Source: an uncultured Microthrixaceae bacterium (GTDB lineage: Bacteria > Actinomycetota > Acidimicrobiia > Acidimicrobiales > VFJN01). Taken from it: a DNA stretch of 64,000 bases. The stretch spans positions 770,238 through 834,237 of the forward strand of contig CAVVRO010000008.1 of assembly GCA_963750645.1 (NCBI GenBank), given 5' to 3'. The notes under the pieces are model-generated. The model had not been told where the DNA came from. It did not search any database and was given only the letters and a program-made list of their open reading frames with translations. The position numbers and the translations under genes are program-made. Positions 2,991-45,872 of the stretch are shown piece after piece (the stretch's first letter is position 1; each line of letters begins with the position of its first letter).

Positions 2991-3889
2991 TCGAGTCCCT
3001 GAGCTACATCGGGTTCACCTCCCCGAACGCTGACGAGTGGACCACCTTCGGGCCCGAGGTCCTCGGCCTCGAGCTCGTCGACCCCGGCGCCGACGGTTCG
3101 GTCCGACTCCGGAACGACGACGCCGCCTGGCGGATCGCCATCCACCCTGGCGACACGGATGACCTCGGCTACCTCGGTTGGGCCGTCGGCGGCCCTGACG
3201 GGCTCAGCGCCGCGATCGCCACGCTGCAGGGCGCCGGCGTCGAGGTGCACCTCGGCGACGGAGAGCTCGCGGCGCTCCGGTCCGTGGCGGAGCTCGCGTG
3301 GTTCGTGGATCCCTTCGGCTTCCGCCACGAGCTCAGCCACGGCCAGCATGTCCGGCCCGGGTCCTTCACGCCCGGACGGAACATCTCGGGGTTCGTCACC
3401 GGCCAGGGCGGCCTCGGGCACGCCGTGCTGATCGTCCCCGACTTCGAGGAGGCCACCCGCTTCTACGTCGACCTGCTCGGCTTCCGGCACTCGGACGACA
3501 TCGACATGGGCATCCACGTGCGGTTCCTGCACTGCAACCCTCGCCACCACACCCTCGCCTTCTCGGCCGTGCCGGGGATGGTCGGGTTCCACCACCTCAT
3601 GGTCGAGGTCGGTGACGTCGACGACGTCGGCACCGCCTACGACCTCGTGAACGAGCGCCACCTCCCGGTGGCCATGACCCTGGGACGCCACACCAACGAC
3701 GGCATGACGTCGTTCTACGTGCGCACGCCGTCGGGGTTCGAGGTCGAGTACGGATGCGGGGGACGCCTCCTCGACACGTCGACCCCGTGGGAGCCCGAGC
3801 AGTTCGACGCGATGAGCCACTGGGGCCACAAGCCGCCGGCCGAGGCCCTGTTCCCCGGCATCCTCCGCCCGGCGGAGCTGCGGCAGTGA
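2987..3889 (+). CDS. Extradiol ring-cleavage dioxygenase (HsaC/BphC-like, VOC fold)
   Basis: GLGHAVL, FLHCNPRHHTLA, HHLMVEV, LGRHTND..TSFYVRTPSGFEVEYG; GTGA overlap with the upstream gene. Confidence 0.93.
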   Translation: MIESLSYIGFTSPNADEWTTFGPEVLGLELVDPGADGSVRLRNDDAAWRIAIHPGDTDDLGYLGWAVGGPDGLSAAIATLQGAGVEVHLGDGELAALRSVAELAWFVDPFGFRHELSHGQHVRPGSFTPGRNISGFVTGQGGLGHAVLIVPDFEEATRFYVDLLGFRHSDDIDMGIHVRFLHCNPRHHTLAFSAVPGMVGFHHLMVEVGDVDDVGTAYDLVNERHLPVAMTLGRHTNDGMTSFYVRTPSGFEVEYGCGGRLLDTSTPWEPEQFDAMSHWGHKPPAEALFPGILRPAELRQ

Positions 3890-35763: not shown

Positions 35764-37173
35764 TCAGGCCGCGAGTCGGCAGCCGTCGCGGAGCAGCAGC
35801 TCGTGCGGGCCGTACCGCGCGACCGGTCGGTAGCCCTCGAGCGACGCGTGGAGGCCCGGGAGCCCCTCGAGACGGCCCGACCACACGAGGACCGCGCAGA
35901 CACCGGGCTCCCGCGCCGCGGACGCGACCTCTGCAGTCGTGAGCCCGCCGGCGTCGATGCGAACGTGCGACGTGTCGACGAGCCACCCGGGGCTGGCTCG
36001 GTCGGCCAGCCAGCTCAGCGTCGGCTCATCGGAGATGACCAGGCCGTCGTCGGGCTCGATCCTGCGGAGGGTGTCGACCATGGCCAGCTGCAGCGGTGTG
36101 GCGCGGGGTTGGCTCAACCGCCAGTCCGCACGTTCGCCGTGCGCGGCGACGAGCACGACCACCACCGCGACGATGACCACCACCGGGGGACGATGCCGAG
36201 CGGCGAGCACGGCCACTGGTACGACGAGCATGGTGAGGTGCTGGGTCCAGAGGGGCGCGTGGATGAGGACGACGACGATCGACGCCGCCGTCCAGAGCCA
36301 CAGCGCGACCGTCACGTCGCGGCGGCCGGTGGGGTCCTCGCGCCCACGCCGCGCCGCGCGGACGAGCCCGGTCACCGCACCCGCCGCGGCCATGGCGACG
36401 AGGAGCCGGTCCTTGCGCCACACGGTCTCCCGCAGGAGGGCGAGGCGGTCGCCCAGGTCGACGCCGGCGTGACGGGCCTCCAGGTGCAGCCGAACGGACT
36501 GGTCCCACACCTCGGAGAGCCCCCACGGCAGGGACGCGACCAGGACGACGGCAGCCGCGCCCACCACGGCGCCGACGACCGCGCGAGGCCCGCCGCGCCG
36601 CCCGAGGAGCCAGAGCACCGCCAGCAGCGCCGGGGCGGCCATGAGGCTCTTCACCCCGATCGCCAGGCCGATCAGGACCACCGACGCGATCGACCACCCC
36701 CGTTGCGCTGAGGTCGCGGCGAGCACGGCACCCGCCGCCAGGGCCGCCACGACCGCGTCTGACTCGATCCGCACGGTGGAGAACAGGAGGAGTCCGCTCG
36801 TGGCGACGAGCCCGGCCGCGAGGGCGGCGCTCACGGCGTCGCCGGTGCGGCGACCCAAGCTGTGCGCGATGACGACGAGCGCGAGGCCGGCCACCATCGG
36901 GACCAGACGGGCGGCCCACGGCGTGCCGAAGCCGAGCAGGTCGCCGAGGCGCAGGAGCGGCAGGAACACCGGGCCCTGGCTGGAGTACACGTCCCGGAAC
37001 GGCGCACCGCCCTCGCGCATCGCCAGCACGGAGGAGAGGTAGACCCCGTCGTCGTAGCCGATGACGGCTCGGGTGGACGCTCGCGGGAGCCAGAGCAGTG
37101 CGGCGACCGCCACCGCAGCCCAGAGGCCGACGTGCGACCCCAGCGACGTCGAACGGGCGCTTCCCTGGATCAG
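35764..37173 (-). CDS. GT-C fold membrane glycosyltransferase (ArnT/GT39-like); start uncertain
   Basis: YDDGVY acidic loop after the first [13 protein letters not shown], many TM helices; abuts the apbE stop. Confidence 0.7.
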
Positions 37174-37967
37174 TCGCTCCGGTGTGCCAGGGCGCCGTCG
37201 AGGCCCGACGACCAGTGGGCTCGCTCGTCGTGCGTGACCAGGAAGGCGGAGTAGCCGACCTGCTGCTCGATCCACTCGAGTCCCGCGAGGCCCATCACGA
37301 AGACCGCGGTGGCATACGCATCGGCGACGGCCAGATCGGGTCCCACCACCGTCGCGCTGGCGAGCACGGTCGTCGGCTGGCCCGTCGAGGGGTCGATGAT
37401 GTGTGCGCCTCGCTCGTAGGTCGCCGAGGTGGCGACGCCACAAGGGCCGGCCAGCTCGAGCGTCGCGGCCTGCCGGTCCGCACGGTCTGGGTGGCGGATG
37501 CCCACGCGCCAGGTGGCTCTGGGCATCGGCGCACCACGCAGGAGGACGTCCCCACCCGCGTTGATGCAGAACGTGGTGGCACCACCATCTTCGAGGATGC
37601 GGGCGGCGAGCTCGATGGACCAGCCTTTCACGTAGCCCGACGGGTCGAGCGTGCTGTCGCTTCGCTCGGTCAGGTCGAAGGCGTCGAAGGCGCCGTTGGT
37701 GATCGACGTCAGCTCCACACATCGCCGCAGGACGTCGCGCACCTGATCCTCGACGTCCTCCAGGGCGATCTCACCTCGTCCGAGCCGGTTGATCTGGCTG
37801 TCGTACCGGTACGTGCTGAAGGTGTCGTCGACGTGGTGAAGCCAGTGGACGGCCTCACCGAGGCTCGCCGGATCCGGGAGCGGATCGAGGATCTCGAAGC
37901 TGATCGCCGTCCCCATCACCTGTTCGACGTGACGCAGTGCGGGCGGGACTGCGCCGGTCGAGCTCAC
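37170..37967 (-). CDS. apbE: FAD:protein FMN transferase (ApbE family), module 1
   Basis: VMGT, FSTYRYDS, DPSGYVKGW, INAGGD, ATSATYERGAHIIDP, ADAYATA. Confidence 0.92.
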   Translation of the reverse strand: MSSTGAVPPALRHVEQVMGTAISFEILDPLPDPASLGEAVHWLHHVDDTFSTYRYDSQINRLGRGEIALEDVEDQVRDVLRRCVELTSITNGAFDAFDLTERSDSTLDPSGYVKGWSIELAARILEDGGATTFCINAGGDVLLRGAPMPRATWRVGIRHPDRADRQAATLELAGPCGVATSATYERGAHIIDPSTGQPTTVLASATVVGPDLAVADAYATAVFVMGLAGLEWIEQQVGYSAFLVTHDERAHWSSGLDGALAHRSD

Positions 37968-38620
37968 GCGATCGACACGCCCTCAGCGCGGGCCGAGTCG
38001 AGGGCGGCCTGCAGCGACTGCCGGTACCCCTGGCTGGTGTAGGTGGCGCCGGAGACGGTGTCCACGTTGGCATCCTGGGCGCCGAGGACCTCCGTGCGCA
38101 GCTCCGGGAGCGCTCGGGCGTTGATGCTCCGACTCCGACCGTCGCCATCGGGGTAGGCGATGACGGCGACGTCGGTGATCGTGCCGTTGGCGATCTGGGC
38201 CTGGACCTGGACGGGGCCGTAGCGGGTCTGGACGAGCGCCCCGTCGAAGGGCTGCACGGTGGCCTGCGCAGGCGCAGGCGCCGCGGTGACGCTCCCGGAC
38301 GCGGTGGCCGGCGCCGTCGGCATCGGCGTCGGGAGGGAGGCGAGTGCATGGCTGGTCGCCTGGGCGGCGTCGAGGGTGGCGAGCAGGGCTCCGAGCCCGC
38401 CGGTCGTGACCACCGTGAGCGCGAGCGCGCCCGCCCGGGCACCAGCAGCGGGGTGACGACGGCGCCCGGCCGGCCGTGACGGCGACGAGGACCGGGCGCC
38501 AGGGATGTCCGTGGTGGGCTGGCGGCGCTGCTGGAGACGGGCGAGCCGTTCGGCCAGCTGCGCATCGGTGGGCGCGCCGGGCGGCGGCGGGATGGCGCCG
38601 GGGGGCGGCGGAAGGGTCAT
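37964..38620 (-). CDS. Membrane-anchored FMN-binding (flavinylated) protein
   Basis: TM anchor, Pro/Thr/Ala linker, TRYGPVQV...VDTVSGATYTS flavinylation motif. Confidence 0.9.
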   Translation of the reverse strand: MTLPPPPGAIPPPPGAPTDAQLAERLARLQQRRQPTTDIPGARSSSPSRPAGRRRHPAAGARAGALALTVVTTGGLGALLATLDAAQATSHALASLPTPMPTAPATASGSVTAAPAPAQATVQPFDGALVQTRYGPVQVQAQIANGTITDVAVIAYPDGDGRSRSINARALPELRTEVLGAQDANVDTVSGATYTSQGYRQSLQAALDSARAEGVSIA

Positions 38621-38660
38621 GTCGCCACTGTCGCCCGGGCAGCTCAGTGGGAGGTTGGCG

Positions 38661-39209
38661 CTACCTGTGCCCAGGCTGTGAATCCTGAACCCACCTCAGG
38701 ACGACGCCCAGGATCCGCACCGCCAGGGCGTAGACCGCCAGCGCGATGCAGCCGACGAGACCCGCCTGGAACCCGAGCCCGGCACGATCGCTGCCCGACT
38801 GGTAGCCGTGCAGGACGGCCAGCACCACGGCCGCGACCGAGCTCAGGTGGACGATGCGCCACGGTGTCGGACGCAAGCGCTTCGTGGGCCATGAGGTGAA
38901 CACGACTGCGGCGAGCAGGTACGCCGCGAGGACGCCCCAGGTGATGGCGAACGAGCTGGCACCGGGGACCACCAGCTGCACGACGTCGATGTCGCTGTTG
39001 GCGTCGAGGTAGGCCGCGGCCATGTGCACGCCGGTCATGGCGAGCGCCAGGCCCCCCAGCCAGTTGTGGAGGTCCAGCCACCAAGCGGGCGACCGGCGGA
39101 CGCCGGTGTTCCGCGACGAGAAGAAGAAGCCCCCGACGAGGGCCGCGATCACCAGCACCGTCGCAACGATGCCCGTGGCGCGGCTTGCGTACCACCAGAA
39201 CTGGTTCAC
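38661..39209 (-). CDS. Ferric reductase-like transmembrane (MsrQ-like cytochrome b) protein, module 1
   Basis: WYASRATG; His residues in LDLHNWL, GVH, WRIVH, VLHG; no cytosolic FAD/NAD domain. Confidence 0.85.
   Translation of the reverse strand: MNQFWWYASRATGIVATVLVIAALVGGFFFSSRNTGVRRSPAWWLDLHNWLGGLALAMTGVHMAAAYLDANSDIDVVQLVVPGASSFAITWGVLAAYLLAAVVFTSWPTKRLRPTPWRIVHLSSVAAVVLAVLHGYQSGSDRAGLGFQAGLVGCIALAVYALAVRILGVVLRWVQDSQPGHR
38664..38681 (-). promoter_or_regulatory. Tandem OmpR/PhoP-type box TCACAGC-N4-GCACAGG
   Basis: 11-bp-period direct repeat 44 nt upstream of the FMN-binding gene ATG (38620), the same spacing as at 14299. Confidence 0.65.
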
Positions 39210-40675
39210 GGGTCGACCTCATCCGCCGCCTCCACCTCGGGGACGCTGACCGTGAGCGGCAGCGTGATGCGCACGGTCCACCCGGCCCCGGGGCTGGTCG
39301 TTGCCTGCACGGTGCCGTCGTGCGCTTCGACGATGGAGCGGACGATCGAGAGCCCCAGACCGGCACCGCCAGACCCACGGGAGCGTGACTCGTCCGCCCG
39401 GTGGAACCGCTCGAACGCCCGCCTCGCCTCCTCGGGGGCTTCTCCGGGTCCGTCATCGGCGACGACGAGCAGGACCTGGCCATCGCCTGTCGTCAGTGCG
39501 GCGTGGGTGCGGGTGGACGGTGGCGTGTGAGCGCGCACGTTGGCCAGCAGGTTGTCGACCACCTGCCGGAGCTGCGCCCGGTCGCCGGTGACGAACGCGA
39601 CCTGGTCGACACGCAGCTCGATCGGGTAGCGGCCGTCGACGGCGTGCGCCATGGCCACCGCTTCGATGACGACCTCGCTGAGGTCCACCGCGGTGAACTC
39701 CGGCAACCGATGCTGGTCGAGTCTGGCCAGGAGGAGGAGCTCGTCGACGAGGACCGCCATCCGTGCCGTCTCCGAGGCGATCCCGGCCAGCGCCCGGTCC
39801 AGGTCGGCGGGCTCGCCGCGTGCGCCCCGATCGATCAGCTCGACGTAGGCGCCGACGGCCGTCAAGGGAGTCCGGAGCTCGTGGGACACATCGGCCACGA
39901 ACTGGCGCATCCTCTCCTCCGACTCCCGTAGCGCGGTCTCCGTCGTATCGCGGTCGGCGAAGGCACCTCGGATCCGATCGAGCATCAGGTTCACCGCCAA
40001 GGCCACGCGTCCGACCTCGGTGGCCTCGTTGGCGCCGGGTACCTCGATGTCGAGGTCCCCTGCCTCGGCGATGGCGAGGGCGGCGCGCTCGGTGCGACGC
40101 AGCGGTCGAAGGCCGAACGTGACGAGTGCGAGCCCGAGCAGGGCGGCGATCACCAAGGCCAGCGCCGCGGTCGTCGCCTGGACGGACACGAGGCGCCCGG
40201 CAGACTCATCGGCTTCGTGCAGCGTCGCCCCCACCAGGAGCACGCGTCCGTCCGCGAGCCGCTCGCTGCGGACCCGGAGCCGATCCTCGCCGCCCGGAGC
40301 CGAGACGACGTCGTGCCGGACGGCACCCGTCGCCGTCCGGCTGAGCTCGCTGAGCGCGCTCGACAGGGCTTCATCACCCGGCGGCGGCGGATCGTCGCGA
40401 TCCCGCGGCCGGGTGTCGACGGTCAGGTCCGTCCCCCCATCGGCGGCACGCACCTGGACCAGGGTGCCGGGTGCCGCCAACCGGATCTCGGCGCTGGGGT
40501 CGTCGAGATCCTGCGCGAGGATGGAGCTCACCTCGTCCGCGGTCTGGTCGAGGCGGACGTCGACCTGGTCGATCAGTGACCGGGTGAACACCGAGTGCGT
40601 TGCGAGACCGGCTCCTCCCAGGGCCAGCGCCACGACGACGACCGTGACGGCGGCAAGCCGAGCGCGCAGGGTCAA
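39206..40675 (-). CDS. HAMP-domain sensor histidine kinase (PhoR/TcrY-like)
   Basis: Two TM helices, HAMP, FVADVSHELRTPL, NLLANVRAHTP, DDGPG, GAGLGL; TTG overlapping the RR stop. Confidence 0.92.
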   Translation of the reverse strand: MTLRARLAAVTVVVVALALGGAGLATHSVFTRSLIDQVDVRLDQTADEVSSILAQDLDDPSAEIRLAAPGTLVQVRAADGGTDLTVDTRPRDRDDPPPPGDEALSSALSELSRTATGAVRHDVVSAPGGEDRLRVRSERLADGRVLLVGATLHEADESAGRLVSVQATTAALALVIAALLGLALVTFGLRPLRRTERAALAIAEAGDLDIEVPGANEATEVGRVALAVNLMLDRIRGAFADRDTTETALRESEERMRQFVADVSHELRTPLTAVGAYVELIDRGARGEPADLDRALAGIASETARMAVLVDELLLLARLDQHRLPEFTAVDLSEVVIEAVAMAHAVDGRYPIELRVDQVAFVTGDRAQLRQVVDNLLANVRAHTPPSTRTHAALTTGDGQVLLVVADDGPGEAPEEARRAFERFHRADESRSRGSGGAGLGLSIVRSIVEAHDGTVQATTSPGAGWTVRITLPLTVSVPEVEAADEVDP

Positions 40676-41379
40676 GGTTCGACCGGCGGCGTGGGCTCGC
40701 GCAGCGTGTAGCCGACGAGCCGGACGGTGTGGATCAGCGGCGGCCCGAGCGCATTGAGCTTCTTCCGGAGGTAGCTGACGTAGGTCTCCAGGATGTTGCT
40801 GTTCCCGTCGAAGTCGTACTGCCACACGAACTCGAGGATCTGCCCCTTCGACAGCACCGTCCTGGGGTTCAACATGAAGTAGCGCAACAGGTTGAACTCC
40901 GTGGCCGTCAGCTCGATCGGTGCGCCCGCCCGCCACACCTCGTGGGTCCCGACGTCCATGACCACATCGGCGAACTCCAACCTGTCGCCCTGGTCGGTCC
41001 CGGCCGGACGCGCCCGCTGCAGGATCGCCCGCACGCGCAGCACGAGCTCGGCGAGCGAGAACGGCTTGGTGACGTAGTCGTCAGCGCCCGATCCGAACCC
41101 CTCGCGCTTGTCGTCGAGGGTGTCGCGCGCCGTCAGGAACAGGATCGGCATCGAGAGCCCGTCCACGCGGAGCCGGCGTGCGACGGCGAACCCGTCGAGG
41201 TCGGGGAGCATCACGTCGAGGACGATCAGATCGGGTAGCTCCTGCTGCGCGGCCACCAGCCCACTTCGCCCCGTGCCGGCTTCGATCACCCGGAAGCCCT
41301 CGTAGCGGAGTGCGGTGGCCACCGCATCGAGGATCGATGCTTCGTCGTCCACGACGAGTACGCACAGCTGGGAGCCCAT
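40672..41379 (-). CDS. OmpR-family response regulator (PhoP/TcrX-like)
   Basis: VVDDE, LDVMLPD, ADDYVTKPFS, VWQYDFDG..NILETYVSYLRKKL, IHTVR.VGY. Confidence 0.95.
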   Translation of the reverse strand: MGSQLCVLVVDDEASILDAVATALRYEGFRVIEAGTGRSGLVAAQQELPDLIVLDVMLPDLDGFAVARRLRVDGLSMPILFLTARDTLDDKREGFGSGADDYVTKPFSLAELVLRVRAILQRARPAGTDQGDRLEFADVVMDVGTHEVWRAGAPIELTATEFNLLRYFMLNPRTVLSKGQILEFVWQYDFDGNSNILETYVSYLRKKLNALGPPLIHTVRLVGYTLREPTPPVEP

Positions 41380-41610: not shown

Positions 41611-42351
41611 ATGAGGCGGAGCCGCCGTGGACTTCCCGACGACGCCGAGCAGATCATCGAGCGGGACCTCGCCCACTGGGCGGTGCTCGATGACGAGGAG
41701 CGCCAGCGGTTGCTCGAGCTCACCGAGTGGCTCCTGCAGCGCAAGCACTGGGAGGCCGCCGGCGGCTTCGAGCTGACCGACACCATCCGCCTGGTGATCG
41801 CCGTGCAGGCCGCCCTGCTGATCCTCGGCTTGACCCCGGACCACTACCGGCTCGTGAGCTCGATCATCGTCTACCCCTCGACCGCGATCTCCACCGGCGA
41901 GCGACCGGGGCCGGCCGCGGGGACCCGCACCGACGAGCCGCTGGCGATCCACGGCCTGGCCCAGGACCGGCGGGGGCCAGTGCTGGTCGCCTGGGATCAG
42001 GCCCAGGCGTCGGCCCGCCATCCCGAGCGCGGCCACAACGTCGTGATCCACGAGTTCGCGCACAAGCTCGACATGCTCGACGGGCTCATCGACGGCACGC
42101 CCCCGATCGACGCCGCGGCGATGAAGCCCTGGGTCGCGATCTGCACGGAGATCTTCGACGACCTCCGGGCCGGGCGTCCCCGGCCGCCGCTGCGACCGTA
42201 CGGGGCCACGAACCCGGGCGAGTTCTTCGCGGTCGCCACGGAGGCCTTCTTCGACCTCGCCGCGGAGCTGGCGGAGAACGAGCCCGACCTGTACCGGATC
42301 CTGTCCGACTTCTACGGACAGGATCCCAGCGCGCGCCGCCCGGCGCGCTGA
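41611..42351 (+). CDS. Zinc-dependent peptidase M90 (MtfA family)
   Basis: IAVQAALL, IIVYP, NVVIHEFAHKLD, YGATNPGEFFAVATEAFF. Confidence 0.92.
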   Translation: MRRSRRGLPDDAEQIIERDLAHWAVLDDEERQRLLELTEWLLQRKHWEAAGGFELTDTIRLVIAVQAALLILGLTPDHYRLVSSIIVYPSTAISTGERPGPAAGTRTDEPLAIHGLAQDRRGPVLVAWDQAQASARHPERGHNVVIHEFAHKLDMLDGLIDGTPPIDAAAMKPWVAICTEIFDDLRAGRPRPPLRPYGATNPGEFFAVATEAFFDLAAELAENEPDLYRILSDFYGQDPSARRPAR

Positions 42352-42502: not shown

Positions 42503-42976
42503 ATGGAGCGACGCACAGCGCTGGCGGCGGCGGCCGTGGGTGCGTTGTTGGCCGCGAGCGGGGTCGTGGCCATCAGCACCAGCCTGCTCGACGCCGGCGG
42601 TGACGAGACGAGCGCCTTCGAGGGCCCCTCGCCCACCACGCTCGCGACGACGCCCTCGACGGCTCCTGGACCGGTCGTGGTCACCGAGACGCGAGACGTG
42701 TTCGACACGATCGTGGTGCCGGTGGCTGATCCGGTGAGCAGCCCGGCCGCGCCAGCGCCGGCGGCGGGCTCGACCCCCACGAAGACGTCCAAGGCGACCT
42801 CGCCGCCCACGACCTCGCCGCCCGCGCCGCCCGCGACCGCCCCGTCCACCACCTCGACCACGCGCCCTCCCGGGGTTCCGGCGGACTGGCCGGCCGACAA
42901 GCCGATCCCACCCGTGCCGGCGGGATGTCAGAAGCCGCAGCTCGAGGACAACGGCGTGTGGAACTGCGATCACTGA
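42503..42976 (+). CDS. Secreted/anchored Pro-Thr-rich protein with a small C-terminal Cys/Trp domain
   Basis: MERRTALAAAAVGALL signal, GAGGAGG RBS, low-complexity stalk, C-terminus PADWPADKPIPPVPAGCQKPQLEDNGVWNCDH. Confidence 0.75.
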   Translation: MERRTALAAAAVGALLAASGVVAISTSLLDAGGDETSAFEGPSPTTLATTPSTAPGPVVVTETRDVFDTIVVPVADPVSSPAAPAPAAGSTPTKTSKATSPPTTSPPAPPATAPSTTSTTRPPGVPADWPADKPIPPVPAGCQKPQLEDNGVWNCDH

Positions 42977-42977
42977 C

Positions 42978-43583
42978 ATGAGCACCGACGCAGAGCGTGC
43001 CGAGCGGCTTCGACGCCTACAGGAGCGGCGAGCGGGCGCGCCCCCGCGCCCCCCGTCGCGCGACGGGGAGCTGCACCCAACCGCGCCGGTTGACGGCGGC
43101 GGGGTACCGGCCCCCGCGCCCCGAGCGGCCACGGGCAACCGACGCCGCCGAGCGGCGCCCGCCGGCCGGGTGCTGGCCGCCGGCCTCAGCGCCACGGCGT
43201 TCCTGGGCGGCGTGGCAGCACTGGGGGCCACCGCCAAGGCCCCCTCAGCCGGCGACGATGGCACGGCAGCGGCCGGCGCTGACCCTTCGGCGACGCCCTC
43301 CAGCACGATGCCGGTCCCCACCACGGTTCCCGTGCCGGCCACCGTCGTGGTCGTCGAAGAGGTGCACCACCCCGTGTACGTCGACCAGCACGGCAACCCC
43401 ATCGGTGGTTCGAGCACCGGGTCCGCGGCCGGCGCCCGCGCGACGGGCAGCGGCGGCACGTCGACCGTGAGGTCCGTGACCACCACACCCACCGCGGCAC
43501 CCGCCCCGGCGGGGCCCGCGCCGGTCGCCACCACCCCGCCGCCGCCGCCGCCTCCTCCGGCCTGCTCCGGCTCGACGTGCTGA
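42978..43583 (+). CDS. Membrane-tethered Pro/Thr-rich protein ending in C-SGST-C (candidate ApbE substrate)
   Basis: N-terminus AERLRRLQERR...RRRR + TM resembles that of the FMN-binding protein; poly-Pro then ACSGSTC*; overlaps the apbE start. Confidence 0.75.
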   Translation: MSTDAERAERLRRLQERRAGAPPRPPSRDGELHPTAPVDGGGVPAPAPRAATGNRRRRAAPAGRVLAAGLSATAFLGGVAALGATAKAPSAGDDGTAAAGADPSATPSSTMPVPTTVPVPATVVVVEEVHHPVYVDQHGNPIGGSSTGSAAGARATGSGGTSTVRSVTTTPTAAPAPAGPAPVATTPPPPPPPPACSGSTC

Positions 43584-44509
43584 GGGGCGCTCCGCACTGG
43601 CACGAGCGCCGGTTCCATGCCATGGGCAGCCCGGCGCACCTGATCGTGGGTGGCGCCCACGAGCCGCTTCTGGAGTGGGCGGTCGACGAGGTCGAGCGGC
43701 TGGAGCAGAGCTGGAGCCGCTTCCGACCCACGAGCGAGGTGTCGCGGGTCATGGCGACCCCTGGCGAGTGGGTGGCCGTGAGCGAGGACCTGCTCCGGAT
43801 CCTCGTCAGAGCACGGTCGCTGTGGGAGCACACCGCCGGCGCCTTCGACCCGACCGTCCTCCCTGCGCTCCGTGCGCTCGGCTACGACCGCACCTTCAGC
43901 GCCGTGGCGCCACGGGACGACGCCACGCTGGCCGTGCCCGAGCCCGTCCCTGGCTTCGGAGCAGTGGAGCTGGATGAGGACGCGGGCGCGGTACGACTCG
44001 CTCCAGGTGCCGGGCTCGACCTCGGTGGCATCGGCAAGGGCCTGGCCGCCGACCTGCTGGTCGAGGGCCTGTTGCTCCGCGGCGCGGGCTCGGCACTGCT
44101 CGGGATGGGCGGCGATGTCCGCGCAGCAGGTGTGGTGCCCGACGGCGGATGGCGCATCCCCGTGCTCGACCCCTTCGACGCGGAGCACGTGTGGCGGGAG
44201 GTGGTCCTCGACACGGACGCGGTGGTCACCAGCACCTCCCTCCTGCGGCAATGGAGCCGGGGCGGGCGCGAGCTGCACCACATCATCGACCCGCTCGACG
44301 GGATGCCGACCGACGCGGGCGTCGTCGCGGTCGTGGCGCAGGGCCCAGAGGCGTGGTGGGCGGAGGGTCTGGCCAAGGCGGCGATGGTGCTCGGCACCAC
44401 AGCTGCGCCCACCTTGTTCCAGGGCACAGGAGTGACCGCCACGCTGTTCCGGGAGGATCGGACGGTCATCGACGTCCGCGACGAGGCGATGACGTGCTCG
44501 CCGCGGTGA
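43577..44509 (+). CDS. apbE: FAD:protein FMN transferase (ApbE family), module 2
   Basis: FHAMGS, WSRFRPTSE, FDPTV, DLGGIGKG, GGD, TS, HHIIDP, AEGLAKA. Confidence 0.92.
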   Translation: MLRGAPHWHERRFHAMGSPAHLIVGGAHEPLLEWAVDEVERLEQSWSRFRPTSEVSRVMATPGEWVAVSEDLLRILVRARSLWEHTAGAFDPTVLPALRALGYDRTFSAVAPRDDATLAVPEPVPGFGAVELDEDAGAVRLAPGAGLDLGGIGKGLAADLLVEGLLLRGAGSALLGMGGDVRAAGVVPDGGWRIPVLDPFDAEHVWREVVLDTDAVVTSTSLLRQWSRGGRELHHIIDPLDGMPTDAGVVAVVAQGPEAWWAEGLAKAAMVLGTTAAPTLFQGTGVTATLFREDRTVIDVRDEAMTCSPR

Positions 44510-45066
44510 ACCCACAGGTGGCCTGGTACGCGTCGCGCTCATCCGGCGTCGTCGCGTGGGCGCTGGTGACGGCGAGCATCTTGTGGGGGCTCGCGCTCTC
44601 GACTCGCCTGATCCGCAAGCGCGGGGTCCCCGCCTGGCTCCTCGACCTGCACCGCTTCCTCGGCACCCTCTCGCTGGTGTTCGTCGCGGTCCACCTCGTG
44701 GCCCTGTGGGCCGACAGCTACACGGTCTTCGGCTGGAGCGAGCTGTTCATCCCGCTGGCGTCGACCTTTCGACCAGGCGCCGTCGCGTGGGGGATCGCCG
44801 CCACCTACCTGCTCGTCGCCGTGGAGGTCACGTCGTGGCTGATGCGGCGCCTGCCGCGTCGGCTGTGGCACACGATCCACCTCAGCAGCTTCGGGCTGTT
44901 CGTCACCGCGAGCGTGCACGGCTTCCAGTCGGGTGCCGACCGGGAGACGTTGGTGGTGCAGTGGCTGGCCCTCACGGGCGGCACGTTGCTGGTGTTCCTG
45001 GTCCTCTTCCGACTGCTCGCGCCACGCCGGGCCCGCGCCAAGGTCCCGGTCGCCTCCGCCGCGTGA
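44506..45066 (+). CDS. Ferric reductase-like transmembrane (MsrQ-like cytochrome b) protein, module 2
   Basis: WYASRSSG; His residues in LDLHRFL, AVH, WHTIH, SVHG; GTGA coupling; paralogous to 38661-39209. Confidence 0.85.
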   Translation: MNPQVAWYASRSSGVVAWALVTASILWGLALSTRLIRKRGVPAWLLDLHRFLGTLSLVFVAVHLVALWADSYTVFGWSELFIPLASTFRPGAVAWGIAATYLLVAVEVTSWLMRRLPRRLWHTIHLSSFGLFVTASVHGFQSGADRETLVVQWLALTGGTLLVFLVLFRLLAPRRARAKVPVASAA

Positions 45067-45083: not shown

Positions 45084-45692
45084 TCAGGAGGGGCGACGCG
45101 CGATCGGATGGCTGGCCACCACGCTCTCCAGCACCGCCAGCCCGACCGTGATCTTGCGCAGGAACGACGGGTTGTGCGGCACGAGGTGGAAGCTCGGATG
45201 GGACGACCACAGGGTTCGCAGCTTCCGGTCGAGCTCGAGGGCCTCCTCGTTGGTCTCGGTGCGGTAGCGGTTCCCGCCCTCGATCTCGACGCCACCGACG
45301 ACGGCCGTCTCGAAGAACAGCACGATGTCGTAGCGGGCCAGCTCCGCCTCGTGTGAGGTGCCCATCGCCTCGAAGTACCCGTCCGGCCCGTCGGGCCAGT
45401 ACGCGGCGCCGTCGATGGTGCCCCGGTCGCAGAGGAGGATGCGATCCGGGAAGGTGGTGGCCTGGATGTCCTCCAGCGCCCGCTGGACCTCGAAGATGGC
45501 TCGTTGCACGGACCGCCGGGCGTCGGCGTTCGGCACCCGGGGGAAGCCGCCGGCGAACAGGGTCGTGGCCGACTCAGGCACCACGACGACCTGCTCACCG
45601 ATCTCGCGCCGGAAGAGGTCGACGGCGGTGGTCTTGCCTCCGCCGGGACCACCCGTGAGCACGATCCGCAACGGTTGGTCGACGAGATCCAC
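45084..45692 (-). CDS. P-loop ATPase/kinase-like protein (NadR/Ttd14 AAA type)
   Basis: RIVLTGGPGGGKTT Walker A, VPESAT, LCDRGTIDG; start approximate. Confidence 0.8.
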   Translation of the reverse strand: MDLVDQPLRIVLTGGPGGGKTTAVDLFRREIGEQVVVVPESATTLFAGGFPRVPNADARRSVQRAIFEVQRALEDIQATTFPDRILLCDRGTIDGAAYWPDGPDGYFEAMGTSHEAELARYDIVLFFETAVVGGVEIEGGNRYRTETNEEALELDRKLRTLWSSHPSFHLVPHNPSFLRKITVGLAVLESVVASHPIARRPS

Positions 45693-45872
45693 GATCAGGC
45701 GACCTCCGTCGCATCGGCAGCATCCTGCTCGGCGTAGCCGTCCTTCGCCATGGGCAGATACTTGCGCCTGCGGAGTCCGCCTGCCTGCGGTCGGCCGTCG
45801 TTGACTCCCGCTCACCGTCATCGCTTAGCCTCCCGCGGATGCGAACCGGCGACTGGCGATGGGGGCGACCTC

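Follow-up and report, generated by a model that had tools for sequence, protein, structure and literature searches.

The ORF at 42978-43583 of a 64,000-nucleotide stretch of DNA (the window) encodes a 201-aa protein that may be a domain-less covalent-FMN carrier, acting as the subunit that tethers the cofactor in an electron-export operon of four genes (up157, ORF 42978-43583, ApbE2 and FRD2). On comparative sequence evidence, we give this reading a probability of about 45%. Judging from gene order and profile comparison, the protein takes the place in the operon where an FMN_bind protein would stand and carries the N-terminal module of such a protein, and a Cys-bracketed, fold-less tail protein filling the FMN_bind slot beside ApbE and cytochrome b is probably new here. 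An earlier note on this DNA had put forward the same general idea. Its conserved, fold-less, tethered partner of ApbE and cytochrome b is upheld at the level of comparative genomics, but its assignment of Thr as the acceptor is not. The features of the operon (module 2) and of the neighboring cluster used for comparison (module 1) are as follows.

42503..42976, + strand: up157, upstream operon gene, 157 aa, with signal-anchor, Thr/Pro stalk and C-terminal Cys-x12-Cys loop (GCQKPQLEDNGVWNCDH)
42978..43583, + strand: class-C tail protein (the finding), a 201-aa bitopic protein without a folded domain; ATG start
42987..43037, + strand: N-terminal cytoplasmic helix of the tail protein (residues 4-20, DAERAERLRRLQERRAG); pLDDT about 90; common to FRD-linked FMN_bind proteins
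43140..43229, + strand: Arg-rich stretch and TM helix (residues 55-84, RRRRAAPAGRVLAAGLSATAFLGGVAALGA); helix 62-84 in the model
43344..43400, + strand: conserved extended mid-stalk block VVVVEEVHHPVYVDQHGNP (residues 123-141), from alignment and model
43536..43559, + strand: octaproline (residues 187-194), a rigid spacer ahead of the tail, from the sequence
43563..43580, + strand: C-terminal loop C196-S-G198-S199-T-C201, the proposed working end, from the family alignment
43577..44509, + strand: ApbE2, homologue of FAD:protein FMN transferases, leaderless and in the tail-linked clade (Pfam PF02424, E 1.2e-51)
44506..45066, + strand: FRD2, small Ferric_reduct/MsrQ-like cytochrome b (PF01794, E 1.1e-6)
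37170..39209, - strand: module 1, comprising FRD1, an FMN_bind protein and ApbE1 (Pfam and ORF list)
38661-39209, - strand: FRD1 of module 1
37964-38620, - strand: FMN_bind protein of module 1, with canonical DTVSGAT
37170-37967, - strand: ApbE1 of module 1, leaderless
40672-41379, - strand: OmpR-type response regulator, heading module 1 and divergent from module 2
39206-40936, - strand: histidine kinase (longest ORF; true start probably after the regulator's stop), heading module 1

The open frame and its tail were confirmed as originally described: the 201-aa ORF ends in eight Pro, followed by A-C-S-G-S-T-C and a TGA, and this stop (43581-43583) overlaps the GTG at 43577 of the 310-aa ApbE by 7 nt. 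Scanning against Pfam and NCBIfam returned no match for the ORF, so it had rightly been called invisible to domain-based surveys, and the AF2 model (pTM 0.21) contains two helices only. Residues R55, R57 and A59-L66 of the Arg-rich/TM region are invariant in A1, and the positive-inside rule leads us to infer an N-in/C-out topology. The remainder had been described as only a Pro/Thr/Gly stalk, which overlooks the conserved block VVVVEEVHHPVYVDQHGNP in its middle; V135 and P141 of this block are at least 90% conserved, and the block is modeled in an extended form with a pLDDT of 83-89.

Upstream, the stop of up157 lies 1 nt ahead of the ATG of the tail gene. The up157 product has no Pfam or NCBIfam match, and homologues with the same Cys loop are found upstream of class-C stalk genes in loci L001, L022 and L023. 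The earlier note had called the system minimal, which misses this fourth conserved gene (42503-42976). Downstream, ApbE2 matches solved ApbE structures (PDB 5mgy, 1.4e-23), and FRD2 likely starts at the GTG at 44506, in a GTGA overlap with the ApbE2 stop. The linkage of the tail gene to apbE is conserved, with a PF01794 gene in the same cluster and the genes overlapping or abutting. A Pfam scan found no FMN_bind gene in module 2, in agreement with what had been noted before. FRD2 itself was considered as an ApbE substrate, since a motif-like loop, H-G-F-Q-S-G-A-D, follows its last haem His, but it was rejected because the would-be acceptor is Asp; the position preceding it is A, S or T among the four paralogues of the genome, as judged by eye.

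Module 1 supplies the comparison, and its FMN_bind protein carries the sole FMN_bind domain of the 3.85-Mb genome. The regulator and kinase at its head, which were named solely from sequence appearance and tblastn, have homologues adjoining 46 of 92 ApbE2-like loci, and these are also present in loci L002-L013. That the tail protein shares an N-terminal design with the module-1 FMN protein had been read from the letters. BLASTP by itself is insufficient here, as the N-terminal segment gives no significant match between the two proteins (E 40), but the design is borne out by hhalign, in which a 71-member family profile aligned with the module-1 protein over the helix and RRRH with a probability of 94.8 and an E of 5.5e-8. 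The family HMM also matches the N-terminus of an FMN_bind protein from another genome (3.6e-10). Among FMN_bind proteins, the N-terminal module tracks FRD adjacency, and those with no neighboring FRD have a plain signal-anchor.

A profile search with the tail protein returned 131 matches. Members have a charged helix at the N-terminus, followed by a TM anchor rich in Arg and then by a Pro/Thr stalk, and they close with a short, conserved C-terminal stretch; neither FMN_bind nor any other real Pfam domain was found in the 132 library members; Pfam and NCBIfam likewise placed none of the known flavin-binding folds (FMN_bind, DUF2271, DUF3570, NqrB/RnfD type) on the ORF or on its 132 relatives. 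Two classes of tail can be distinguished, class C ending in C-x-G-[S/T]-x-C(-P) and class T in [S/T]-x-[G/A]-S, and both are found directly ahead of genes for a leaderless ApbE and a small cytochrome b of the Ferric_reduct type. When the window's own protein is included, 73 of 133 tails end in the strict C-x-G-[ST]-x-C form and 26 in [ST]-x-[GA]-S. Most class-C members have a Pro run ahead of the tail, and the core of block VVVVEEVHHPVYVDQHGNP was detected by regex in 45 of 78 class-C tails and in 0 of 26 class-T tails. Among 71 aligned members, in which mean column identity is 16%, no columns other than C196, G198 and C201 are invariant. The tail is thus retained in syntenic homologues, and so is the stop, with apbE behind it each time; it is not an artefact that truncates a longer domain.

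Conservation at the end of a gene that runs into the next one could follow from constraints on the apbE start that overlaps it, or on the ribosome-binding site of apbE, and spurious ORFs are plentiful in high-GC DNA, so the frame might even be due to chance. Many class-T stops do overlap the apbE start, where the last three codons are shared (cATGgcaGCTGAg), and ApbE has a conserved N-terminus of its own, M-x-A-E-R-R-F; terminal conservation in class T is therefore partly common to the two proteins. Nevertheless, we regard these explanations as highly improbable. A chance frame is at odds with the 131 profile matches and with a GC3 of 0.86 in the ORF's own frame, compared with 0.75-0.76 in the other two. 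In class C, the 7-nt overlap lies downstream of the invariant Cys, Gly and Ser, for which different loci use different codons (Ser TCG or AGC, Cys TGC or TGT). The class-T motif is kept where FRD, not apbE, comes next after a gap of 25-30 nt, and these tails, which have no apbE overlap, retain [RK]-[GA]-S via synonymous changes. The codon switches indicate that selection acts on the tail at the protein level. We therefore reject an origin from the ribosome-binding site or the overlap for class C and for those class-T tails that precede FRD; where class T precedes apbE, it is retained as a partial reservation.

To obtain a view that was unbiased as to the tail, 151 Acidimicrobiia genomes were surveyed starting from ApbE, giving 92 ApbE2-like loci in 63 genomes. 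The ORF ending at the ApbE start had a class-T tail at 51 loci, a class-C tail at 4 and a looser two-Cys tail at 6, and four further loci had a class-T ORF ahead of the FRD gene. In total, 59 of the 92 loci carry a strict tail ORF, or 65 when looser two-Cys tails are counted, against a background of 22 class-T and 1 class-C endings among 2891 other ORFs. FRD2 orthologues directly follow ApbE at 63 of the 92 loci, and the tail is present at 55 of these compared with 6 of the 29 without FRD directly downstream. FMN_bind, found in 17 of the 151 genomes, is never next to an ApbE2-like gene, and DUF2271 was found in 9 of the 151. Under a known-substrate screen made up of FMN_bind and DUF2271, 44 of the 63 genomes with ApbE2 gave no match to either domain. 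A search for DUF3570 gave 0 of 151 genomes, a count that is uninformative because the control genomes were silent too.

The tail differs from the ApbE motif characterized previously. The canonical motif is [S/T](-3)-G-A(-1)-[S/T](0) (PMC12052999), and the extended form D-x-x-[S/T]-G-A-[S/T] is absent from the tail P-P-A-C-S-G-S-T-C, which has no Asp at -6 and has Ser in place of Ala. S-G-S-T had been read as [S/T]-G-A-[S/T] with Thr as the acceptor, and this detail fails, because the corresponding position is Lys in 51 of the 73 strict tails (the others being T 7, Q 7, G 3, R 2, and A, N and S 1 each). Position 199, directly after the Gly, is Ser in 60 of these tails and Thr in 13. Since the hydroxyl residue after Gly is conserved whereas the Thr200 position is mostly Lys, Ser199 is the likelier acceptor. 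With this register, positions -3, -1 and 0 are C, G and S/T in class C, and S/T, G/A and S in class T, although in class T all three were fixed beforehand by the search regex. Class T also displays P(-7) in 32 of 51 tails and T(-5) in 27 of 51, neither of which was demanded by the regex. The core in common with the canonical motif comprises only a hydroxyl or thiol at -3, a small residue, and then Ser/Thr. We know of no ApbE substrate with Cys at -3, the residue there if Ser199 is the acceptor. At locus L040, a two-Cys tail encloses a canonical S-G-A-T within the bracket.

The transferases differ along with their neighbors. All 19 FMN_bind genes of the class adjoin ApbE1-type genes. In a quick ML tree, 18 ApbE1-type rows fall on one side of a branch with an SH-aLRT of 90 (97 with two unlabelled rows), and the ApbEs linked to class C group in one five-member clade (support 99). 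Because the two ApbE groups were gathered by different queries, only the association on the FMN_bind side is independent of ApbE type. By tree and gene adjacency, tail proteins are paired with their own ApbE clade and FMN_bind proteins with a separate one. The active site varies as well. The catalytic residues of Vibrio cholerae ApbE are Ser241, His257 and Asp285 (PMC12052999); S219 of ApbE2 aligns with Ser241 and H235 with His257 (mutant H257G chain 6nxj versus wild-type 6nxi), and E263 occupies the Asp285 position. At this position, 60 tail-linked enzymes have E in 52 cases, N in 7 and D in 1, compared with D in 18 of 18 FMN_bind-linked ApbEs, suggesting that the chemistry may differ, and the ApbE2 clade also has an extra His.

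These features bear on the possibility that the arm is free of flavin, with the C-x4-C loop itself serving as a dithiol/disulfide or a Cu/Fe center supplied by the cytochrome b, perhaps in partnership with the up157 Cys loop, while ApbE2 acts elsewhere or by other chemistry. The altered acid and extra His of the ApbE2 clade would suit such an arm, as would the invariance of the Cys pair and the presence of a second Cys-loop stalk protein in the same operon at 4 of the 6 class-C-type loci examined. A C-terminal C-x4-C is also a known mobile redox center: in the high-Mr thioredoxin reductase of Plasmodium falciparum, Cys535 and Cys540 sit on a flexible C-terminal arm beside the flavin center (PMC8395237), a likeness in the sense of "works like" only. 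That arm is part of a folded cytosolic FAD enzyme, whereas the arm of the tail protein would be its whole extracytoplasmic part, with any flavin on the arm itself. A literature search with what we take to be the exact sequence of the reductase arm found nothing. We nevertheless consider a flavin-free arm unlikely. The sister class has the same N-terminal module, stalk, ApbE clade and cytochrome, lacks any Cys and retains G/A-S, so that Gly-Ser, rather than the thiols, is what the two classes have in common. Haems carry one electron at a time, and the operon encodes no two-electron mediator besides flavin. Furthermore, apbE is translationally coupled to the tail gene at 55 of the 92 loci.

The location of the enzyme, on which the earlier note was silent, raises a different alternative. 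No signal peptide was seen in ApbE2 or in any of the 61 tail-linked orthologues examined, the ApbE2 N-terminus leading straight to the R-x-M-G-[ST] first strand (both by eye), and the stalk protein has a TM anchor. With the tail predicted to be outside and ApbE leaderless, flavinylation would have to precede export. The signal is equally missing from 18 of 18 FMN_bind-linked ApbE1-type enzymes (by eye), so its absence does not single out the tail. It does fit a structural or escort subunit, whose N-terminal module docks to the cytochrome while the tail or the mid-stalk block binds leaderless ApbE, tethering it or exporting it as a hitch-hiker toward a target elsewhere outside. Also in its favor, the genome encodes TatC, and the N-terminal module accompanies FRD adjacency. 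The Arg-rich stretch, however, differs by eye from the usual S/T-R-R-x-F-L-K pattern, no other candidate substrate was detected in the 44 genomes mentioned above, and FMN_bind proteins with the same N-terminal module are substrates themselves. Apparent stalk-ApbE fusions (P0061, P0099, P0086 and P0014) contain Arg-rich out-of-frame stretches; we take them to be frameshifted gene calls and did not count them as evidence. On balance, an escort role seems improbable.

Pairing of the two proteins was also modeled, with ApbE2, residues 118-201, FAD and Mg in the complex. The score was 0.47 (runs 0.02, 0.54 and 0.47), and the best of three controls reached 0.04. In calibration, 58 of 80 solved complexes and 2 of 110 mismatched pairs attained the mark; those attaining it with 0.60 or under were just 7 of the 80 solved complexes and both mismatches. 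The runs had a partner pLDDT of at least 39 and a contact agreement of at least 3%, and no interface was reported. The prediction weakly favors an ApbE2-tail pairing, and its score would fit a docking peptide as well as a substrate.

If the tail protein is a covalent-FMN carrier, it might work in the following way. The N-terminal helix and TM anchor would keep it at the two-haem Ferric_reduct cytochrome b, and the Pro/Thr stalk and octaproline spacer would hold the six-residue Cys-bracketed loop away from the membrane. An ApbE2-type transferase would join FMN by a phosphoester to the hydroxyl residue after Gly, Ser199 and not Thr200, yielding a natural "flavin-tag" in place of an FMN_bind domain. 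Because ApbE has no signal peptide, the modification would occur in the cytoplasm and be followed by export of the unfolded C-terminal part. We propose that C196 and C201 form a disulfide, in a loop that may present the flavin or couple with it in redox reactions. In the most ambitious version, which we consider doubtful, FMN esterified to Ser inside a six-residue disulfide loop on a polyproline stalk would form an extracellular FMN/dithiol swinging arm on the two-haem cytochrome, loaded before export by the leaderless Asp-to-Glu ApbE clade; this minimal electron-export machine would exist in three variants (Cys-bracketed, Ser/Gly-ended and canonical FMN_bind) in one genome, and would explain most "orphan" ApbE genes of Acidimicrobiia.

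The closest described systems are the MsrQ-like flavinylation-associated clusters of Actinobacteria (Meheust et al., 2021, eLife; PMC8238504). Like module 2, these clusters of Actinomycetota bring together apbE and the gene for a two-haem PF01794 membrane protein, and module 1, whose FMN_bind protein has DTVSGAT, is a textbook case. Such clusters typically hold a gene for an FMN-binding domain, in place of which module 2 has the fold-less stalk protein, and they also differ in that the module-2 cytochrome lacks an NAD-binding domain and its ApbE a signal peptide. The survey dropped genes without a signal peptide, so the leaderless ApbE clade would have been filtered out. DUF2271 and DUF3570 were discovered through the same reasoning, from conserved neighbors of apbE where FMN_bind was absent (PMC8238504), but those domains are folded, carry canonical [S/T]GA[S/T] and were confirmed by co-expression, while the tail protein is a fold-less candidate with a divergent motif. 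A short, unstructured C-terminal peptide was the entire ApbE recognition site in the engineered Flavin-tag, where no flavin-binding fold is needed (Tong et al., 2021, cited in PMC12052999). That tag is artificial and has the canonical D-x-x-[S/T]-G-A-[S/T], in contrast to the natural tail, which lacks the Asp and Ala and has Gly before Ser/Thr and two Cys. According to the same source, ApbE flavinylates a 7-residue tag at a protein C-terminus, and cytosolic ApbEs exist (PMC12052999). Flavinylation-like motifs have been predicted in the unstructured C-terminal extension of FMN_red (PMC11334425). In the openly accessible articles searched, we found no description of the tail-protein family.

If the tail is flavinylated, covalent flavin carriers would need no flavin-binding fold, and domain-based censuses of extracytosolic electron transfer would overlook a whole class. 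This would bear directly on the "orphan apbE" remainder of the survey, in which 4% of apbE genomes were left unexplained (PMC8238504). The tail would then amount to a naturally occurring flavin-tag of very small size, served by a transferase dedicated to it. Leaderless ApbEs, even beside exported FMN_bind proteins, raise the question of where flavinylation occurs and how a flavinylated chain crosses the membrane. If the tail is not flavinylated, the proteins are still a large, unannotated and tightly conserved family of partners of a membrane cytochrome.

Look-alikes of the protein in the ESM Atlas were only unnamed Actinomycetota or Chloroflexota clusters, all below 0.9. The genome of the window itself has 4 ApbE genes, 1 FMN_bind and 3 tail modules; its two class-T tails are at loci L016 and L017 on contig C12. 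Across the phylum, the class-C profile was found in at least 7 of 401 genomes when 7 candidates per genome were scored.

The ORF for the candidate flavinylation substrate, a stalk protein with a short C-terminal tail, was found in the sequence with exactly the coordinates and ending claimed in the earlier note, and its in-frame GC3 was 0.86. It belongs to a tightly packed four-gene unit, module 2, in which the ORF stop and the GTG of ApbE2 overlap by 7 nt, and the ApbE2 stop overlaps the GTG of FRD2, a Ferric_reduct (FRD) gene.

Features of the window
35764-37722, - strand: PMT_2/GT87-type glycosyltransferase, directly downstream of module 1 (Pfam E 4e-7 and 9e-5; GT87 score under the cut-off)
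37170-37967, - strand: ApbE1, leaderless, the ApbE of module 1
Strand opposite to the ORF: module 1, with response regulator, histidine kinase, Ferric_reduct gene, FMN_bind protein (canonical D-T-V-S-G-A-T) and ApbE
41611-42351, + strand: Peptidase_M90 (MtfA-like; E 1.2e-65), upstream flank of module 2
42503-42976, + strand: up157, 157 aa, unannotated, stop 1 nt ahead of the ORF's ATG
42978-43583, + strand: the ORF, ATG start, 201 aa, ending in eight Pro, A-C-S-G-S-T-C and TGA
43577-44509, + strand: ApbE2, leaderless, 310 aa, GTG start (PF02424, E 1.2e-51)
GTG at 44506, + strand: FRD2, small Ferric_reduct membrane protein (PF01794, E 1.1e-6)
45084-45821, - strand: AAA_28 ATPase, convergent downstream flank of module 2

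Homologues of the flanking Peptidase_M90 and AAA_28 genes recurred only in the own-genome copy of the locus (L021), and were absent from the relatives' loci examined.

The description of the protein as domain-less held except for one conserved extended block, VVVVEEVHHPVYVDQHGNP. Pfam and NCBIfam scans of the ORF gave no match, and an AlphaFold2 model (71 relatives) had a pTM of 0.21, with an N-terminal helix (4-20) and a TM helix (62-84) as its sole helices, and with residues 121-140 and the polyproline run extended yet confident. The family of the ORF is large: 4 relatives came up in a word-based search, and a profile of these gave 131 matches against 1.84 billion representatives. Neither FMN_bind nor any other real domain was found in the 132 library members, and ten members looked up had either no name or the name 'hypothetical protein'. 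No description of the family was found in the open-access literature searched, including the available portions of PMC8238504, PMC11334425 and PMC12052999. Four library proteins that appeared to be stalk-ApbE or stalk-up157 fusions (P0014, P0061, P0086 and P0099) contained Arg-rich out-of-frame stretches, which suggests frameshifts in genes called on error-prone assemblies.

Tail classes among 133 sequences, the window's own ORF included
Class C, strict C-x-G-[S/T]-x-C, optionally followed by P/G/A: 73 of 133
Class T, [S/T]-x-[G/A]-S: 26 of 133
Other tails: the remainder, many visibly truncated or frameshifted

Within strict class-C tails, the first Cys was followed by S (39), T (22), Q (6) or A (4), the Gly by S (60) or T (13), and the second position after Gly was K in 51, T in 7, Q in 7, G in 3, R in 2, and A, N or S in one each. 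SGST is therefore the less frequent variant of C-S-G-S-K-C, and its Thr, one of the acceptors proposed in the earlier note, is not conserved. Only C196, G198 and C201 were invariant in the 71-sequence alignment, where mean column identity was 16%. Class-C loci use either TCG or AGC for the conserved Ser and either TGC or TGT for the Cys, and class-T tails lying ahead of FRD (25-30 nt gap, no overlapping gene) kept [RK]-[GA]-S through synonymous changes; the tail is therefore conserved as protein, and we consider it very improbable that it is an artefact. Two-Cys tails of another kind were seen in L040 (G020:C30, ORF end at 1471), where C-T-T-P-S-G-A-T-V-Q-C holds a canonical S-G-A-T within the bracket, and in L092 and L097 (C-Y-x-x-P-S-G-x-V-x-C-Y). 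These may be a third class that links the canonical motif with that of class C.

So that tails played no part in the choice of loci, we started the survey from ApbE2, used as query against 151 genomes of the class, and fetched the neighbourhoods of all matches. There were 92 ApbE2-like matches at E <= 1e-20, in 63 of the 151 genomes, and an upstream ORF was counted when it ended at most 100 nt from the ApbE start. Comparison of C-termini upstream of orthologous apbE genes, as the earlier note had proposed, recovered the tails.

Tails of ORFs upstream of ApbE2-like genes
Class T: 51 of 92 loci
Class C: 4 of 92 loci
Looser two-Cys: 6 of 92 loci
None by these rules: 31 of 92 loci

Four of the 31 loci in the last row had a class-T ORF ahead of a separate FRD gene. 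As background, the 2891 other ORFs (>= 80 aa) in the same loci included 22 class-T endings and 1 class-C ending. Where FRD directly followed ApbE, a tail ORF was present in 55 of 63 loci; where it did not, in 6 of 29. Class-T tails before apbE overlap the ApbE start with their last three codons (for example, H-G-S-stop reads M-A-A-E in the other frame), so their terminal conservation may be partly shared with ApbE; beyond the positions fixed by the regular expression, 32 of the 51 class-T tails share a Pro at -7 and 27 a Thr at -5. A second, independent set of 13 MAG loci, reached via the stalk protein, had another arrangement, with the regulator, the kinase and in some also ApbE on one strand, and on the opposite strand a stalk protein ending in H-T-T-T-[RK]-[GA]-S followed by FRD. 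The same module was present in one genome from another class of the phylum, and the own genome carries two further stalk-ApbE-FRD modules on a different contig.

G000:C12:230823-234611: L016, tail T-T-S-S-H-G-S
G000:C12:88558-92340: L017, tail V-T-T-T-K-G-S

L016 also has a further small anchored protein (3085-3444) after FRD, which likewise ends in T-S-S-H-G-S. Some ApbE2-like loci lacking a downstream FRD had upstream ORFs ending in a long acidic run, such as ...HEDEDHEDGDDD; this ending was seen in L029, L042, L045, L054, L085, L087 and L132, and in L132 the acid-tailed ORF, PepSY-like by eye, lies upstream of a stalk gene.

Known substrates were sought in the same genomes. FMN_bind was found in 17 of 151 genomes, and none of its 20 matches lay beside an ApbE2-like gene; DUF2271 was found in 9 of 151, and the DUF3570 search gave 0 of 151 with an equally silent control. 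Of the 63 genomes that carry ApbE2-like genes, FMN_bind occurred in 15, DUF2271 in 4 and neither in 44, a figure that covers these two domains. The own genome, 87.9% complete, encodes four ApbEs and a single FMN_bind domain.

We also fetched 19 FMN_bind loci outside the own genome, and the FMN_bind proteins read there had the canonical [S/T]-G-A-[S/T]; L120 and L129 gave no FMN_bind frame, and L124 only a spurious opposite-strand frame. An ApbE1-type gene lay beside FMN_bind in 17 of the 19, with none within the stretch fetched for L112 and L116. A quick maximum-likelihood tree built from 108 ApbEs set the 18 FMN_bind-linked rows apart by one branch (SH-aLRT 90; 97 with two unlabelled rows) and placed the class-C-linked ApbEs in a clade of five (support 99) within the tail-linked group. 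Enzyme and partner co-vary; since the tail-linked rows were collected with the ApbE2 query, independence from ApbE type holds for the FMN_bind side alone.

Active-site positions, with V. cholerae wild-type and H257G ApbE chains as the ruler
His257, H235 in ApbE2: invariant in 108 of 108
Ser241, S219 in ApbE2: S or T in all
Asp285, E263 in ApbE2: D in 18 of 18 FMN_bind-linked; E in 52, N in 7 and D in 1 of 60 tail-linked

In 55 of the 60 tail-linked ApbEs a further His precedes the catalytic one (residue 234 in ApbE2), a place taken by Asp, Ala, Arg or Asn in FMN_bind-linked enzymes, and in the D-x-G-G-I-x-K-G motif (residue 150) tail-linked ApbEs had Gly where Ser, Ala or Cys otherwise stands. 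Since His and Ser are kept and the Asp285 position and pre-His residue are altered, the tail-linked clade retains a plausible catalytic core in an altered pocket.

The N-terminal design that the earlier note saw in both the ORF and the module 1 FMN protein was borne out, with the class-C profile matching the latter over the helix and RRRH stretch (hhalign probability 94.8, E 5.5e-8), as well as the N-terminus of an FMN_bind protein in another genome (E 3.6e-10). In the class, most FMN_bind proteins adjoining FRD have this N-module (L118 lacks the helix; L112 and L117 are weak), and those with no FRD neighbour have a plain signal-anchor. We infer from these comparisons that the N-module accompanies the cytochrome and that the C-terminal part is exchangeable cargo, either an FMN_bind domain or a bare tail. 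We think it unlikely that the ORF instead serves as an escort or anchor.

The best-supported reading is that the ORF stands in for the FMN_bind subunit of an MsrQ-like module, with the tail as target of the dedicated ApbE; we put the probability that the tail is an ApbE substrate at about 0.45.

Alignment of acceptor cores, positions -3, -2, -1 and 0
Canonical: S/T, G, A, S/T
Class T: S/T, x, G/A, S
Class C: C, S/T, G, S/T, then x-C

The acceptor in the window's protein would be Ser199, enclosed in a six-residue loop that the Cys pair would shut. The nearest analogue in function to this Cys-bracketed tail is the C-x4-C arm at the C-terminus of thioredoxin reductase from Plasmodium (PMC8395237). 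In the available part of PMC12052999, a seven-residue flavinylation tag works best at a terminus, and Gly-to-Ala or Ala-to-Val changes merely halved flavinylation. ApbE2 (47-row alignment) and ORF residues 118-201 (71-row alignment) were also predicted as a complex with FAD and Mg. The score was 0.47 (runs 0.02, 0.54 and 0.47), against 0.04 for the best of three controls. In the calibration set, run without custom alignments or accompanying ligand, unlike ours, 58 of 80 solved complexes attained the mark, as did 2 of 110 mismatched pairs; scores of <=0.60 came with only 7 of the 80 yet with both of the mismatches that passed. Partner pLDDT was at least 39, contact agreement between runs was at least 3%, and the prediction reported no interface; it weakly favours the ApbE2-tail pairing, a small push at most.

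The invariant Cys pair could instead make the tail a flavin-free thiol or metal arm, which we regard as unlikely. Up157, which abuts the ORF translationally, is another fold-less anchored stalk protein, ending in G-C-x12-C-x-H. Its homologues with the same Cys loop lie upstream of class-C stalk genes in L001, L022 and L023, and up157 may pair with the Cys-bracketed tail as its thiol partner. The rest of the probability falls to something else again. We file the ORF module as a variant of the flavinylation-associated MsrQ-like system. According to the accessible sections of PMC8238504, that survey explicitly removed genes lacking a signal peptide, and 4% of apbE genomes were unexplained.

No ApbE examined had a signal peptide (61 of 61 tail-linked, 18 of 18 FMN_bind-linked), the criterion being a start at most about 25 residues ahead of the first strand R-x-M-G-[ST]; this covers the window's two ApbEs and loci L021-L129. 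The stalk protein is predicted to lie N-in/C-out, from the Arg-rich segment ahead of its TM helix, so substrates and tails should lie outside and the enzyme inside, a conflict that weakens every model equally. Cytosolic ApbEs are known, according to the portion of PMC12052999 available. Either tails and FMN_bind domains would be flavinylated ahead of export, or ApbE would exit the cell by an unrecognised route; TatC is present in the own genome.

Pmt enzymes of actinobacteria O-mannosylate Thr/Pro-rich linkers. By analogy, and prompted by the PMT_2/GT87-type gene near module 1, the stalks might be glycosylated.
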